Origin: Dictyostelium discoideum
Lineage: Eukaryota
NCBI GenBank assembly: GCA_000004695.1
Contig: CM000151.3
Span: 6,368,001-6,432,000, forward strand
Direction: 5' to 3'
Length of the DNA stretch: 64,000 bases
Program-made: the position numbers and the translations under genes
Notes under the pieces: generated by a model
What the model was told of the DNA's origin: nothing
Seen by the model: only the letters and a program-made list of their open reading frames with translations
Databases searched by the model: none
Shown: piece after piece, positions 24,232-33,363 of the stretch
Layout of the letters: every line of letters starts with the position of its first letter
Position numbering within the stretch: position 1 is the stretch's first letter

Positions 24232-25080
24232 TTATAATTTTGAAATTGGATGACCATGTCTACCTAAACCATTATTAAATGAAATTGAACCATTTAAACC
24301 TTGATTTAAGAATGATTTTAAACCAAGTTGATATTCATTAAATAAAGCATCATTTAAATTTAAACTCCATTGATCTAATGATGATTTTCTATCAGATTTT
24401 AAAGTTTGTTGAGGATTTGAAATGATTTGTTTTGCTAATGTAATTGAGTGAGCCATTAGTTGATCTTTTGATTCAACGATTCTATTTACAAGCCCAATTT
24501 GAAATGCTTCATTACTGTCCACAGCTCTACCTGTTAATATTAAATCCATTGCTCTTGATTGACCAATTAATCTTGGTAATCTAATTGTACCACCATCAAT
24601 AAGTGGTACACCCCATCTTCTACAAAATACTCCAAATGTAGATGACTTGGTTGCAACTCTTAAATCACACCATAATGCTAGTTCAAGACCACCAGCAACA
24701 CAATACCCATCTATACTACAAATTACAGGTTTGCTTAATTGTAATCTTGTGCATCCCAATGGTGCATAATCAGTTTCTTTTGGAGATAAAATTTTATTAC
24801 CTGATTCAATACCTTTTGGTATCTCTTTTAAATCTGCACCAGAACAAAAATTATCACCATTTCCACATAGTATACTTATTAATAAATTATCATCTTTATC
24901 AAATTCTTTAAAAATATTATATAAATCATCTGCTGTCTCTTTATTAATTGAATTCCTACTTGAATTTCTATTAATTTTTATTATTAATATATTTTTATCA
25001 ATAATTTCTATTAAAATATTATTATCATTTTTATTTATTGGTATCATTTTTTTTTTTTTAAATTTTTTTTTCATAGTCAA
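24232..25080 (-). CDS. Enoyl-CoA hydratase/isomerase (crotonase) family protein with C-terminal PTS1 (-SKL)
   Basis: 'ILCGNGDNFCSGADLKE' and 'CVAGGLELALWCDLRVA' are crotonase-fold motifs. The protein ends ...HPISKL. The start may be the third Met (MIPINK..., 25047) because the leading MTMKKKFKKKK derives from an A-tract. Confidence 0.65.
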   Translation of the reverse strand: MTMKKKFKKKKMIPINKNDNNILIEIIDKNILIIKINRNSSRNSINKETADDLYNIFKEFDKDDNLLISILCGNGDNFCSGADLKEIPKGIESGNKILSPKETDYAPLGCTRLQLSKPVICSIDGYCVAGGLELALWCDLRVATKSSTFGVFCRRWGVPLIDGGTIRLPRLIGQSRAMDLILTGRAVDSNEAFQIGLVNRIVESKDQLMAHSITLAKQIISNPQQTLKSDRKSSLDQWSLNLNDALFNEYQLGLKSFLNQGLNGSISFNNGLGRHGHPISKL

Positions 25081-25549: not shown

Positions 25550-26969
25550 TTAACAATAACCTAAATCATTAACATTATTATTATTAGTATTGTTATTATT
25601 AATATTATTATTATTATTATCATTTATTGAAATTGAAATTAAAGATTTATTTTCATGTTCGAGATCAAGTTGTTTTAATTTACTATCCCAATCATCTTGA
25701 GTTAAATCAATTTTAATTATAGGTGGTGAAGAAACTATTGGAGTGATTGAATCAGCTGAATGATAAACATCAATATTACTATTTGAATCACCAAATGTTT
25801 TTGCATAATAAGTTGGTGAAGAATTAAGAGATGATGATAATGAATTTAAATGATTATTATTATAATTATTATTATTATTATTAATTAAAGGTGAATTTAT
25901 TGGTGAAACATTACTTGATGATCTATTATAGGTTAAGCCAATTTCTTTAAGTTTTTCAATTATTATTGAGAAATCTTTTGGTCTATTTAATGGATTTCTA
26001 TCCCAACATTGTGTTATTAATTCTTTAAATTTTAAAGGTACATTAAATGGTATTTGTGGACGATAATTTTGTTTTGGATCAGAAACCATTGATGCCATCT
26101 CTTTTGGTGAATAAATTGTATTTGGTGGTGCATATGAAAACATTTGCCAAACTAATAAACCAAATGAATAGATATCGGATTTTTCATTAATTGGAGAACC
26201 ATTTAAATTCTCTGGTGCCATATAATGTATTGAACCACCTCTTAATTTCTTTGATTCACTTTGATTTGATGATAAACCAAAATCACAAACTTTTGCTGTG
26301 AATTCATTTGAACCGTATAATTGATTTGGTAATATCTCTCTCTTGAAATCTAATAATACATTATTTGAAGTTAAATCACGATGAATTATATGTTGTTTAT
26401 GTAGATATAGTATACCTTTAGCTATATCAGTTAAAAGTTTAACACGTAAATGTGGATTGTTTTCCAAAACTTTATGATTATTCATAAGGAATTGAGTTAG
26501 GTTACCACCAGACATCCATTCTGAAACTATACAATGATTGGTTTCCTTCTCACCATATTTTATACATGCAGCCATGAATTGAACTATATTTGGATGTCTT
26601 AAATTCGATAGAATCAATACTTCATGATAGAATGTATCACAAACTGTAATGGCTTCACAATGAGCTTTCTTTACAAATTTAATTGCAACTTCAGTCTCAT
26701 TCAATAAACCTTTTTTTACATCTCCAAAATTACCTGCTCCGCCTTCTGAATCATCTTTATCAAATTCTAACTCTTCAAATTCAATCTCCCATTTTGGTTT
26801 TTCATATTGTGGTGCAAATTTAGCTGGAAATCTTGATGATAAATAATTATCTTTTTCATTTTCAATTTCTTCAAAATCGTCATCATCTTTAAATTTTGGT
26901 TCAACACCATAATTTTTACTTTTATTTGGTCCAATTATATGTACCTTTTTTTTTTTTTTTTTTTAAAAA

Positions 26970-27014
<45 letters not shown>

Positions 27015-27411
27015 TATTAATAAATTATTTATTATTATTAATATTTATTAAAATTAAATAATTACAATTAATTTATGACTTAATAATTCTTCCATATAAG
27101 ATCTTTTTTTTGGATCAATAACTAAACAATGATTTAAAAAATCTTTTAAAGTATCAGATAAATGATCTGGTATAATTGGTATACCATTTAATTTTTGAGA
27201 TAAATCACCACCAGCCATTTCAATTATTGTACAACCTAAACTCCAAACATCTGATTTTCTAGTTGCTCTATAATTTCTCTTAACTTCTGGTGCCATATAA
27301 TTGAATGTACCAATGATTGCAAATGAACTTTGTTTATATTGTTCATTTAAATAAGTTGAAATTCCACTACCACTACCATTTAAATCATTATTATTATTAA
27401 TATTATTAATA

Positions 27412-27488
<77 letters not shown>

Positions 27489-28094
27489 TGGATTATTATT
27501 ATTATTTGTAGTCTCATTTAAATATTGTTCAAATTGTTTTTTATTTTGAATTGTTGATGCACCAAAATCAATTAATTTTAAATTCTTATTCTTATCTAAT
27601 ACTAAATTTGCAGTTTTAATATCCCTATGAATTACATGATGTTTATGAAGGAATGATAATGTCTCAACTAAATCAGCAATCATTGATATTATTCTACTCT
27701 CTTTAAATCTACCTTGTTTTTTGGTTTTTAATATATTTGCTAAATTTTCACCTTCAATATATTCCATATAAATATAAATAAAATTATCATCTTCTGCATG
27801 TGAATAATATCTTGGTATATTAAATAATCTAATTTTTTCTAAAATATCGGTTTCATTTCTTTTCTATACAAATTTAAAATTATTTAATATTTAATAATTT
27901 AATAATTTATTTTTATTTTTATTTTTTAAATGGCAACATACAAATTTATCTTTACTAATTATTTTAATTGCAACGTAATCAACTTGTTCATTTAATATAA
28001 ATCCATTTTTTTTTCTACATTTTATAACTCTACCATATTGACCTTCACCAATAAAAGAAATTTCTTCCCAATCATCTTTATTATGATAATGCAT
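25550..28094 (-). CDS. Putative dual-kinase protein (about 781 aa): N-terminal STE-like Ser/Thr kinase domain fused to C-terminal TKL-like kinase domain; three exons
   Basis: Exons 28094..27942 (GEGQYGRV, VAIK; donor GTATGT), 27863..27066 (HRDIKTANLVLD, DFGAS, GTFNYMAPE; donor GTAATT after ...SHKLI) and 26944..25550 (acceptor (A)nAG; GGAGNFGDV, VAIK, HRDLTSNN, DFGLS, HYMAPE). All junctions are phase 0. The downstream kinase has no ATG of its own. If intron B is not spliced, these are two genes, 27054..28094 and a start-less 25550..26944. Confidence 0.5.
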
Positions 28095-28809: not shown

Positions 28810-29964
28810 TTACAAAAATCCTGAATTATAAAATCCACTACCATAGGTTGATGAGTCATCTGATGTAGAATAACTAGAATTACCAGAGTTGGAAATTGAA
28901 ATTGTAGAAATTGTTGTAGTGATAGCTGTTGAAGAAATTGTTGATGCATTTGAATTATCTTGGAAATAAATTTGATTTATATCTTTTAATTTATCAATTA
29001 TTTCAGAGAAATCTTTTGGTCTATTTAATGGATTTCTATCCCAACATTGTGTTATTAATTCTTTAAATTTTAAAGGTACATTAAATGGTATTTGTGGACG
29101 ATAATTTAATTTTTCATCAGAAACCATTGATGCCATCTCTTTTGGTGAATAAATTGTATTTGGAGAGGCATATGAAAACATTTGCCAAACTAATAAACCA
29201 AATGAATAGATATCAGATTTTTCATTAATTGGAGAACCATTTAAATTCTCTGGTGCCATATAATGTATTGAACCACCTCTTAATTTCTTTGATTCACTTT
29301 GATTTGATGATAAACCAAAATCACAAACTTTTGCTATAATTTCATCAGAATCATAAAATTGTTCATCATTATTACTACTATTATTATTTAATAATTTCTT
29401 TTTTCTAAAATTTAATAATACATTATTTGAAGTTAAATCACGATGAATTATACCTTGTCTATGAGAATAAAGCATACCTTTTGCAATATCTAATAAAATT
29501 TTAACACGTAAATGTGGATTAATTTCTAGAATTTTACGTTCATTTGAAATGAATTGTGAAAGGTTACCACCAGACATCCATTCTGAAACTATACAATGAT
29601 TCACTTCTTTATTGTCAAATTTAATACATGCAGCAATGAATTGAACTATATTTGGATGTCTTAAATTCGATATTATCAATACTTCATGATAAAATGTATC
29701 ACAAACTGTAACATTTTCACCATGAGCTTTCTTTATTAATTTAATTGCAACTTCAGTCTCATTATAATATCCTTTCTTTACAACACTAAAAAATCCATCA
29801 CCACCAACTGTATCATCTTTATTAAATTTTAATTCATTAAATTCAATTTCCCATTTTGGTTTTTCAAATCTTGGTGCAAATCTTTCTGGAAATTTTGAAG
29901 ATAAATAATCATTATTAAATTTTGGTTCAATATTATTTTCTCTATTTTTATTTTGTCCAACCAT
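28810..29964 (-). CDS. TKL-like protein kinase (paralogue of the C-terminal domain of the upstream dual-kinase gene), copy 2 of a ~2.9-kb tandem duplication
   Basis: 384-aa ORF with its own ATG. Motifs VAIK, HRDLTSNN, DFGLS, HYMAPE. The glycine loop is degenerate (GGDGFFSVV). Positionally conserved GT..AG sites mean it could also be spliced in-frame to the upstream remnant. Confidence 0.6.
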   Translation of the reverse strand: MVGQNKNRENNIEPKFNNDYLSSKFPERFAPRFEKPKWEIEFNELKFNKDDTVGGDGFFSVVKKGYYNETEVAIKLIKKAHGENVTVCDTFYHEVLIISNLRHPNIVQFIAACIKFDNKEVNHCIVSEWMSGGNLSQFISNERKILEINPHLRVKILLDIAKGMLYSHRQGIIHRDLTSNNVLLNFRKKKLLNNNSSNNDEQFYDSDEIIAKVCDFGLSSNQSESKKLRGGSIHYMAPENLNGSPINEKSDIYSFGLLVWQMFSYASPNTIYSPKEMASMVSDEKLNYRPQIPFNVPLKFKELITQCWDRNPLNRPKDFSEIIDKLKDINQIYFQDNSNASTISSTAITTTISTISISNSGNSSYSTSDDSSTYGSGFYNSGFL

Positions 29965-30031
29965 TGATGACTTTTTTTTAATAAATAAATAAATTAATAA
30001 ATTATTATTATTATTATTATATTTTTTTTTA

Positions 30032-31048
30032 TTAATAAATAATAATAAAACCTACAATTAATCTATGAGTTAATAATTCTTCCATATGTGATCTTTTATT
30101 TGGATCAATTATTAGACAACGTTTTATAAAATCAACCATAATCTCTGAAACATGATTTGGTATAATTGGAATACCATCAAATATTTTCTTTGGATTACCA
30201 CCAACAATTTCAAGAACTGTACATCCTAAACTCCAAACATCTGATTTTTTAGTTGATCTATGTAATTTTTTAACTTCTGGTGCCATATAAGTATGAGTAC
30301 CAGTGATTGCAAATGAACTCTCTTTACAAATATTATCACCATCATCTTGTTGTTGGTCAATAATTGATGAACCAAAATCAATTAATTTTAATACTCCATT
30401 CTTATCCAATATAATATTTGATGGTTTAATATCTCTATGAAGAATTTGATGTTTATGAAGGAATGAAAGTGTTTCAGTTAGGTCTGCAATCATTGAAATA
30501 ATTTCAGACTCTTTAAATCTTAATTGTTTTTTATCTTTAAAATATTACATTGTTTTTTTTTCATTTTTAATAAATTTGCTAAATTTTCACCTTCAATATA
30601 TTCCATATAAATATAAATATAATTATCATCTTCTGCATGTGAATAATATCTTGGTATATTAAATAATCTAATTTTTTCTAAAATATCGGTTTCATTTCTT
30701 TTCTATACAAATTTAAAATTATTTAATATTTAATAATAAAATTTAAAAATAAAATTTAAAAAAATAAATTATAAAATTAAAATATTAAAATATAAAATAT
30801 AAAATATAAATATAAAATATTAGTTTAAATTTATTTTTTGAAAAAAATAAAATAAAAATAAATAACTTTTATAATGATTTTTGATAACTTACAAAAAACT
30901 TTTTATTTATTATTTTAACAGCTACAATATCAACTTTTTCATTTTCTATCAAACCATTCTTCTTTCTACATTTAAGTACTCTACTTTTTGAATTACAAGA
31001 TCCAATAGATGAAATTTCTTCCCATTCTTCTTTTTTGTGAGAATTCAT
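30032..31048 (-). pseudogene. Decayed copy of the N-terminal (STE-like) kinase domain of duplication unit 2
   Basis: Exon A' 31048..30890 has a degenerate G-loop (GSCNSKSRV). In exon B' (from 30702), a 26-nt insertion relative to unit 1 around 30505-30535 causes a frameshift and a stop. HRD/DFG/APE motifs remain downstream (ORF 30032..30493). Confidence 0.4.
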
Positions 31049-32231: not shown

Positions 32232-32487
32232 ATGGGAATTATAAATACAAAAAAAAGAAAACAAAATAGAAATAATGGTAGTTTTAATAATATAATAAAT
32301 ACAATGGAAACAAATATATCAAGTTATACAAGTGATGATTTTTTAGATTTCTATGAAGGATCACTCAATGAAATGGATTTTGGAGATTATTCAAGTACTA
32401 CAAGTTTAAATAGTGGTCTTGTTGACTTTGAAAATATAAATTTAAATATTTTATTTGATGATAATAGTAGAAAAAGTATTAAAACTT

Positions 32488-32531
<44 letters not shown>

Positions 32532-32842
32532 TTTAATAATAATAGTAATAATAATAATAATATAAATGAATGGAAGTGTTCATCCATATTTGTAACATAT
32601 AATATACGGATTAAAAAATATGAATGTACAAAATCAATCGTTGAAGAAGTAAAGGGAAGAATATCATGTTTTAAAAAATCATTATCAATTGAACCATTAG
32701 ATATATCACAATTTGAGTTCAATATGAATCAAAATGATCTTTTTTCAAATATTTTATCAAAAGAAATTCAATCATTAATTGTATTAAATTTATCAATTTA
32801 TGATTTACTCTCATTATTCAGTAAGTAAAATATTAATAAATT

Positions 32843-32930
<88 letters not shown>

Positions 32931-33363
32931 TAATTTATTAATCTTTTATTTATTTTATAAAATAGGAGTAAATAAATATTGGTATGAATTTGGACAAAAT
33001 AACAGTTTCTGGAAAAGTTTAACATTGAGAGATTGTGAGAAATGGAATAATAAAGATTTGGTTAAATTAAAGATTAAAAATGGTCAACCATTCTTTGGTG
33101 ATAATAATAATAAAAAAGAGAATTATAACAATTCATCATGGAAAGATTTTTATAAACAAATGACCAGATTAAAAATGTGTAAACAATGTAATATAATTTT
33201 TAGAGAATATAGTAATTCAAATAGCGCTTGTAATTATCATTCAGATATTAGAGATTTAATTCATTCTCGTGGTGCTCTACCTTCTGGAATGTATTGGAGT
33301 TGTTGTTTATCAAAACCAAAAAATAGTATTGGTTGTACAACAAAGTGTCATGAGGAAGAATAA
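32232..33363 (+). CDS. F-box-like protein with N-terminal MGxxxT (myristoylation-type) start and C-terminal Cys/His-rich region; two exons
   Basis: Exons 32232..32820 (donor GTAAGT) and 32966..33363 (acceptor AAAATAG; phase 1). The intron is 145 bp and contains an (A)50 tract. F-box-like segment spans the splice: 'EIQSLIVLNLSIYDLLSLF|RVNKYWYEFGQNNSFWKSL'. C-terminal CKQC...CNYH...CCLSKPKNSIGCTTKCH. Confidence 0.5.

Follow-up and report, generated by a model that had tools for sequence, protein, structure and literature searches.

The STE–TKL two-kinase gene zakA (ZAK1) of Dictyostelium discoideum, its inter-domain intron and its tandem paralogue zak2

The role of ZAK1 in signalling from extracellular cAMP and cAR3 to GSK3 is textbook Dictyostelium biology, and the kinase itself was reportedly cloned in 1999. 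ZAK1 is a tyrosine kinase that is activated by extracellular cAMP via cAR3 (PMC3135261, PMC5941370, PMC1420674) and that raises GSK3 activity through tyrosine phosphorylation at Y214/Y220 (PMC3135261, PMC5941370). The action of ZAK1 on GSK3 favours the prespore fate over the stalk or basal-disc fate (PMC3135261, PMC5941370), and zak1-null cells present a developmental phenotype with less tyrosine phosphorylation of GSK3 (PMC3135261). A second kinase, DPYK4, which is the same protein as ZAK2 (PMC3135261), activates GSK3 in the complementary cell type (PMC3135261, PMC5941370, PMC1420674).

Both proteins belong to a small class in which one polypeptide carries two protein kinase domains, and nine such dual-ePK-domain proteins have been counted in Dictyostelium (PMC1420674). 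Two domains per polypeptide are likewise found in DPYK3, FNIPK-E and IfkA/GCN2 of Dictyostelium and in JAK, RSK and GCN2 of animals. The combinations differ, however. In JAK and GCN2 an active kinase is accompanied by a pseudokinase, whereas both domains of ZakA are predicted to be active; RSK unites an AGC with a CAMK domain, while ZakA unites an STE with a TKL domain; and FNIPK-E and the Dicty9 family represent tandem duplications of a single class, in contrast to the two different classes present in ZakA. In the Dictyostelium kinome paper, ZakA and DPYK4 are described as fusions of STE and TKL kinase domains (PMC1420674). Table S2 of Goldberg et al. 2006 lists ZakA/ZAK1 (DDB0185184) as 'dual-domain', with the classes STE/Dicty3/NZAK and TKL/CZAK, and rates both of its domains as active on the basis of the motif pairs VAIK/VAIK, HRDIKTAN/HRDLTSNN and DFG/DFG (PMC1420674).

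The locus studied here lies in a 64,000-nucleotide stretch of AT-rich Dictyostelium DNA, referred to below as the window, in whose coordinates all positions are given. An earlier note, made from the letters alone, had proposed that three exons on the minus strand form one gene encoding an STE-like and then a TKL-like kinase domain. The gene model is as follows.

27942..28094, minus strand: zakA exon 1, 153 nt, with the ATG at 28094, codons 1-51
27864..27941, minus strand: zakA intron 1, 78 nt, GTATGT..TAG, 9% GC, phase 0
27066..27863, minus strand: zakA exon 2, 798 nt, codons 52-317, the remainder of the N-terminal STE-like (NZAK) domain
27386..27512, minus strand: low-complexity, mostly poly-Asn stretch, about 40 residues long, inserted between DFG and APE in the activation segment of the N-terminal ZakA kinase domain
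26945..27065, minus strand: zakA intron 2 (inter-domain), 121 nt, GTAATT..AAG, 2.5% GC, phase 0
25550..26944, minus strand: zakA exon 3, codons 318-781 and the TAA at 25552..25550
25949..26740, minus strand: ZakA TKL kinase domain, aa 386-649, from Pfam and motifs

Of the motifs of the N-terminal kinase domain, the Gly-loop GEGQYG and the VAIK lysine fall in exon 1, and HRDIKTAN, DFG and APE in exon 2, whose protein sequence ends ...EELLSHKLI. The 3' end of exon 2 at 27066 reads ...CATAAATTAATT (HKLI), with the codons GAA GAA TTA TTA AGT CAT AAA TTA ATT, and is followed directly by GTAATT; reading through this site adds VII before a stop at 27056..27054. Beyond it, intron 2 contains a (TA)n run and an A run, with stops in the reading frame of exon 2. 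The frame reopens in phase 0 at 26944 as VHIIGPNKSKNYGVEPKF... and continues for 464 codons to the TAA. Exon 3 comprises a linker, the C-terminal TKL (CZAK) kinase domain and a Ser/Asn-rich tail, and it lacks a start codon of its own: a scan of the downstream frame from the preceding stop to 26704 for ATG, GTG and TTG returned none, and the earliest in-frame ATG is Met441 (26575), which lies beyond the VAIK lysine. When the three exons are joined, they form a single open frame of 781 aa.

The exons 28094..27942, 27863..27066 and 26944..25550 of the earlier note were reproduced, as was every sequence statement it made about the GTAATT donor after ...EELLSHKLI and the AG acceptor in phase 0 at 26944. 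Its observation that the downstream kinase exon has no ATG also holds, and so does the homology it had seen between the start of exon 3 and a Met-containing N-terminus of the paralogue, which begins MVGQNKNRENNIEPKF at the homologous place. The similarity between zakA and zak2 ends, as had been claimed, exactly at the donor (LI|VII* versus LI|VGFIIIY*). With regard to the inter-domain segment itself, the criteria used for Dictyostelium introns were GT..AG ends, a length of 60-250 nt, less than 15% GC, lack of conservation, frame-free length and conserved coding flanks (PMC1420674), and positions 27065..26945 show the expected pattern for all of these, including the length free of frame constraint. 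Splicing of intron 2 is predicted from the sequence, with support from the curated model and the comparative evidence.

The identity of the locus rests on the curated entry. Residues 1-399 of the model, the part that the comparison covers, are identical to ZakA/ZAK1 DDB0185184 (Table S2, PMC1420674), and this identity crosses both splice junctions, including ...EELLSHKLIVHIIGPNKSK... (SHKLI|VHIIGPNKSK). An exact look-up of the 781-aa model and of the 384-aa stand-alone paralogue ORF in a protein collection gave no match for either, a result that is uninformative either way. The locus is, with a probability of about 0.96, zakA (ZAK1) of D. discoideum, one gene of three exons encoding a 781-aa polypeptide with an STE and a TKL domain. 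The polypeptide of about 781 aa with two kinases that the earlier note had envisaged thus has its counterpart in a single curated dual-domain kinase, and the comparison with the Dictyostelium kinome leads to the same Table S2 entry through the 399 matching residues; an annotation as two genes had been named as a possible refutation, and the curated entry is one protein. What does not survive is the implied novelty, as ZakA is already catalogued as 'dual-domain' (PMC1420674): the two-kinase architecture is real but already known, and it is not a discovery. The value of the locus is that of a calibration point, where raw sequence alone gave the correct exon–intron model and the domain classes of an unusual gene.

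A Pfam search of the joined 781-aa model found two separate kinase domains. Residues 1-317 taken alone have Pkinase as their best profile, with 166 bits against a gathering cut-off of 31.7, and carry the motifs GEGQYG (16-21), VAIK (41-44), HRDIKTAN (130-137), DFG (150-152) and APE (242-244). These intact motifs suggest that the N-terminal STE-like domain may be catalytically competent. The nearest solved chains include NEK2, the STE20 kinases MST3 and MST4, and MEK1; as NEK2 is not an STE kinase, the label 'STE-like' is approximate. The C half scores best with PK_Tyr_Ser-Thr (PF07714), with 184 bits against a cut-off of 23.1, and carries GAGNFG, VAIK (403-406), HRDLTSNN (505-512), DFG (538-540), APE (560-562) and CWDRNP (630-635). 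Its nearest solved structures are CTR1, MLK4, TNNI3K and Roco4 (E 1e-36 to 1e-28). The plant Raf-like CTR1 and the MLK, TNNI3K and Roco4 domains, all of the TKL group, share with the ZakA C domain the HRDLxxxN catalytic loop and the CW motif of subdomain XI, but each of these proteins has a single kinase domain and different accessory domains, and the similarity is confined to the catalytic core. The order STE-like then TKL-like agrees with both the Table S2 classification and the nearest solved structures.

The poly-Asn insert of the N domain varies in length and composition between D. discoideum strains. The D. citrinum and D. firmibasis orthologues have almost none of it, and the insert is specific to D. 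discoideum.

In the mechanism proposed for the locus, splicing out the 121-nt phase-0 intron would join the two halves and leave a conserved linker of about 70 residues, and an active-looking STE-group domain (NZAK, aa ~10-317) would stand in one chain with a TKL-group domain (CZAK, aa ~386-649). Lacking a separate initiation codon, the TKL half would be made intact only within the fusion.

The tandem paralogue zak2 lies upstream of zakA in the window and shows the same layout. Its features, together with those of the flanking genes, are given below.

28810..31048, minus strand: zak2 (DPYK4), tandem paralogue upstream of zakA, same two-kinase layout
31048..30893, 30702..30591, 30534..30056 and 29970..28810, minus strand: zak2 curated exons
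30535..30590, minus strand: 56-nt GT..AG 'intron' of the curated zak2 model, 14% GC
30055..29971, minus strand: zak2 inter-domain intron, 85 nt, phase 0
24232..25080, minus strand: enoyl-CoA hydratase-like ORF, immediately downstream of zakA
32232..33363, plus strand: ORFs at the position, upstream of zak2, where an F-box-like gene is called in other genomes

The zak2 model in the window reproduces 399 residues of the DPYK4 entry DDB0229958 (Table S2, PMC1420674). Like zakA, zak2 has the two-kinase architecture, an inter-domain intron at the same position and in phase 0, and a product that activates GSK3. At the amino-acid level the paralogues are 68% identical over the N domain and 82% identical over the TKL domain. 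The Gly-loop of the zak2 N domain is degenerate (IGSCNSKSR; 'lacks G52'), whereas that of ZakA is intact. Additionally, zak2 lacks the poly-Asn insert, has a shorter tail than zakA, and carries a Met in its linker exon.

The comparison was extended to eight gene copies, one zakA and one zak2 from each of four genomes: that of the window, a second D. discoideum strain, D. citrinum and D. firmibasis. Fused two-kinase proteins are found in the second D. discoideum assembly (779 aa, 97% identical), in D. citrinum (739 and 653 aa) and in D. firmibasis (651 aa), all of them being automated predictions. A phase-0 GT..AG spacer is present at the homologous inter-domain site in all eight copies, with the following lengths.

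zakA inter-domain spacer: window 121 nt, second D. discoideum strain 105 nt, D. citrinum 113 nt, D. firmibasis 82 nt
zak2 inter-domain spacer: window 85 nt, second D. discoideum strain 168 nt, D. citrinum 319 nt, D. firmibasis 75 nt

These spacers, of 75-319 nt, have lengths in all residues modulo 3 and a GC content of 1-8% in the six measured. They do not align with one another, whereas conservation of the coding sequence on either side extends as far as the donor and begins again at the acceptor. To judge from the sequences, the recurrence of this layout in eight copies from four genomes is more than would be expected by chance.

The (TA)n microsatellite and the A run of the inter-domain zakA intron vary within the species, with 121 nt here and 105 nt in the other strain (L003:7042-7146). 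The zak2 inter-domain intron contains an (ATT)n/(ATA)n run, with lengths of up to 168 nt and 319 nt elsewhere.

An in-frame stop occurs 3-15 codons past the donor in each of the six copies that were translated, so that retention of the intron would yield a complete N-terminal kinase. This raises the possibility that a regulated STE-only kinase of 320 aa ending in VII* is made alongside the fused protein, which would still predominate. Early stops are nonetheless expected by chance at 1-8% GC, and the read-through peptides are not conserved, which makes such an isoform improbable.

The same stop, three codons past the proposed donor in zakA, could also be read as the end of a gene. The locus would then consist of two head-to-tail genes, an STE-like kinase ending at 27056..27054 (...HKLIVII*) and a TKL kinase starting from a non-AUG codon or from Met441. 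The homologous exon of zak2 in D. discoideum and D. citrinum does have a Met as its third codon. However, every zakA copy, like D. firmibasis zak2, has Ile at the matching codon, which indicates that the zak2 Met is not a conserved start; there is no ATG at this place in any of the four zakA copies or in D. firmibasis zak2, and no zakA copy has an ATG ahead of the catalytic lysine of the TKL domain. As for Met441, a product starting there aligns only to positions 72-258 of the 258 positions of PF07714, and it would therefore be devoid of the Gly-loop and the VAIK lysine, as well as of helix C. Furthermore, the 62 codons from the acceptor on are under purifying selection, the spacer resembles a Dictyostelium intron in every property and an intergenic promoter region of the usual size in none, and the curated protein is a single dual-domain kinase. 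For lack of a usable start codon, and given the selection on the linker and the intron signature of the spacer, the division into two genes was rejected as very improbable.

Selection was estimated from the orthologue comparisons, in which Ka/Ks is 0.05-0.19 for the N domain, 0.08-0.19 for the linker from the acceptor on (0.10-0.16 among zakA orthologues only) and 0.04-0.18 for the TKL domain (0.04-0.07 among zakA orthologues only, three species), and reaches 0.18-0.49 in the low-complexity tail. Both kinase domains and the linker are under purifying selection. These values bear on a further reading of the missing start codon, in which the TKL unit would be a decaying pseudogene that has lost its ATG through a change to ATA, and the in-frame join a coincidence. 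It is true that zakA has ATA where the paralogue has ATG, and that a phase match by chance has a likelihood of one in three. Notwithstanding, the frame of 464 codons is open with all catalytic motifs intact, the Ka/Ks of the TKL domain is as low as stated across three species, and the phase-0 join is kept in eight copies despite intron lengths in all residues modulo 3. The developmental phenotype and reduced GSK3 tyrosine phosphorylation of zak1-null cells (PMC3135261) also speak against it, and with Ka/Ks, intact motifs and a published knockout phenotype on the other side the pseudogene was rejected, its probability being next to nil. The comparative results fit one spliced coding sequence, not two genes or a dead copy.

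With regard to the history of the pair, D. discoideum, D. citrinum and D. firmibasis all have an F-box gene, zak2, zakA and an enoyl-CoA hydratase gene in this order, and the arrangement shared with D. citrinum and D. firmibasis dates the zak2–zakA tandem to before these species separated. The fusion, like the inter-domain intron, is older than the duplication into zakA and zak2. Earlier comparative work, based on the genomes available at the time, had listed zak1 and zak2 for D. discoideum only (PMC4931340), but the pair is also present in D. citrinum and D. firmibasis. The best match in D. purpureum in a protein search has one kinase domain only, at 39% identity, and the family looks confined to close relatives of D. 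discoideum.

The curated zak2 model contains a feature of its own in the N-terminal kinase domain. The 56 nt of its second intron (30535..30590) are coding sequence in the second D. discoideum strain, in D. citrinum and in D. firmibasis, and the curated intron removes 19 codons. Just 3' of it, in the same domain, the window lacks one base between 30534 and 30533, which is G in the second D. discoideum strain and T in D. citrinum and D. firmibasis. At this site the window reads AAAGAT-AAAAAAC, the second D. discoideum strain AAAGATGAAAAAAC and D. citrinum AAAGATTAAAAAAC, as compared over L003:3408-3540, L001:3417-3550 and L002:6359-6490. The A run is equal in length in the four genomes, and a homopolymer miscount is therefore unlikely. 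Unspliced, zak2 of the window shifts frame and then meets a stop, and the curated 56-nt intron restores the frame; the second D. discoideum strain has an intact ORF of 653 aa without this intron.

The 56-nt intron is either a recent conversion of coding sequence to intron or a bogus intron that masks a frameshift. It is possible, though on the doubtful side, that the frameshift is rescued by a splice arising from coding sequence, or that the N kinase is truncated if this splice is absent. If the splice is real, zak2 would offer a recent strain-level rescue of a frameshift through the change of coding sequence into intron. If it is absent, the N kinase of ZAK2 would be truncated in the laboratory strain, and the TKL half would need the internal Met of the linker exon.

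The two paralogues also share stretches of exact identity in the window. Positions 27898..27735 of zakA and 30737..30574 of zak2, which run from the end of intron 1 into exon 2, contain exact blocks of 117 and 46 nt, and the last 35 nt of intron 1 are identical in the two genes. In the TKL domain, 26297..25968 of zakA and 29335..29006 of zak2 contain exact blocks of 120, 47, 48 and 102 nt. The Ks of the D. discoideum paralogues is 0.26-0.38, which is not above the Ks of the species orthologues. The long identical blocks, together with a Ks no higher than that of the orthologues, suggest that gene conversion may have taken place between the tandem zakA and zak2 genes in D. discoideum. In D. citrinum, the corresponding stretch of exon 2 differs between the paralogues, with KVNETS in one and KRNETD in the other.
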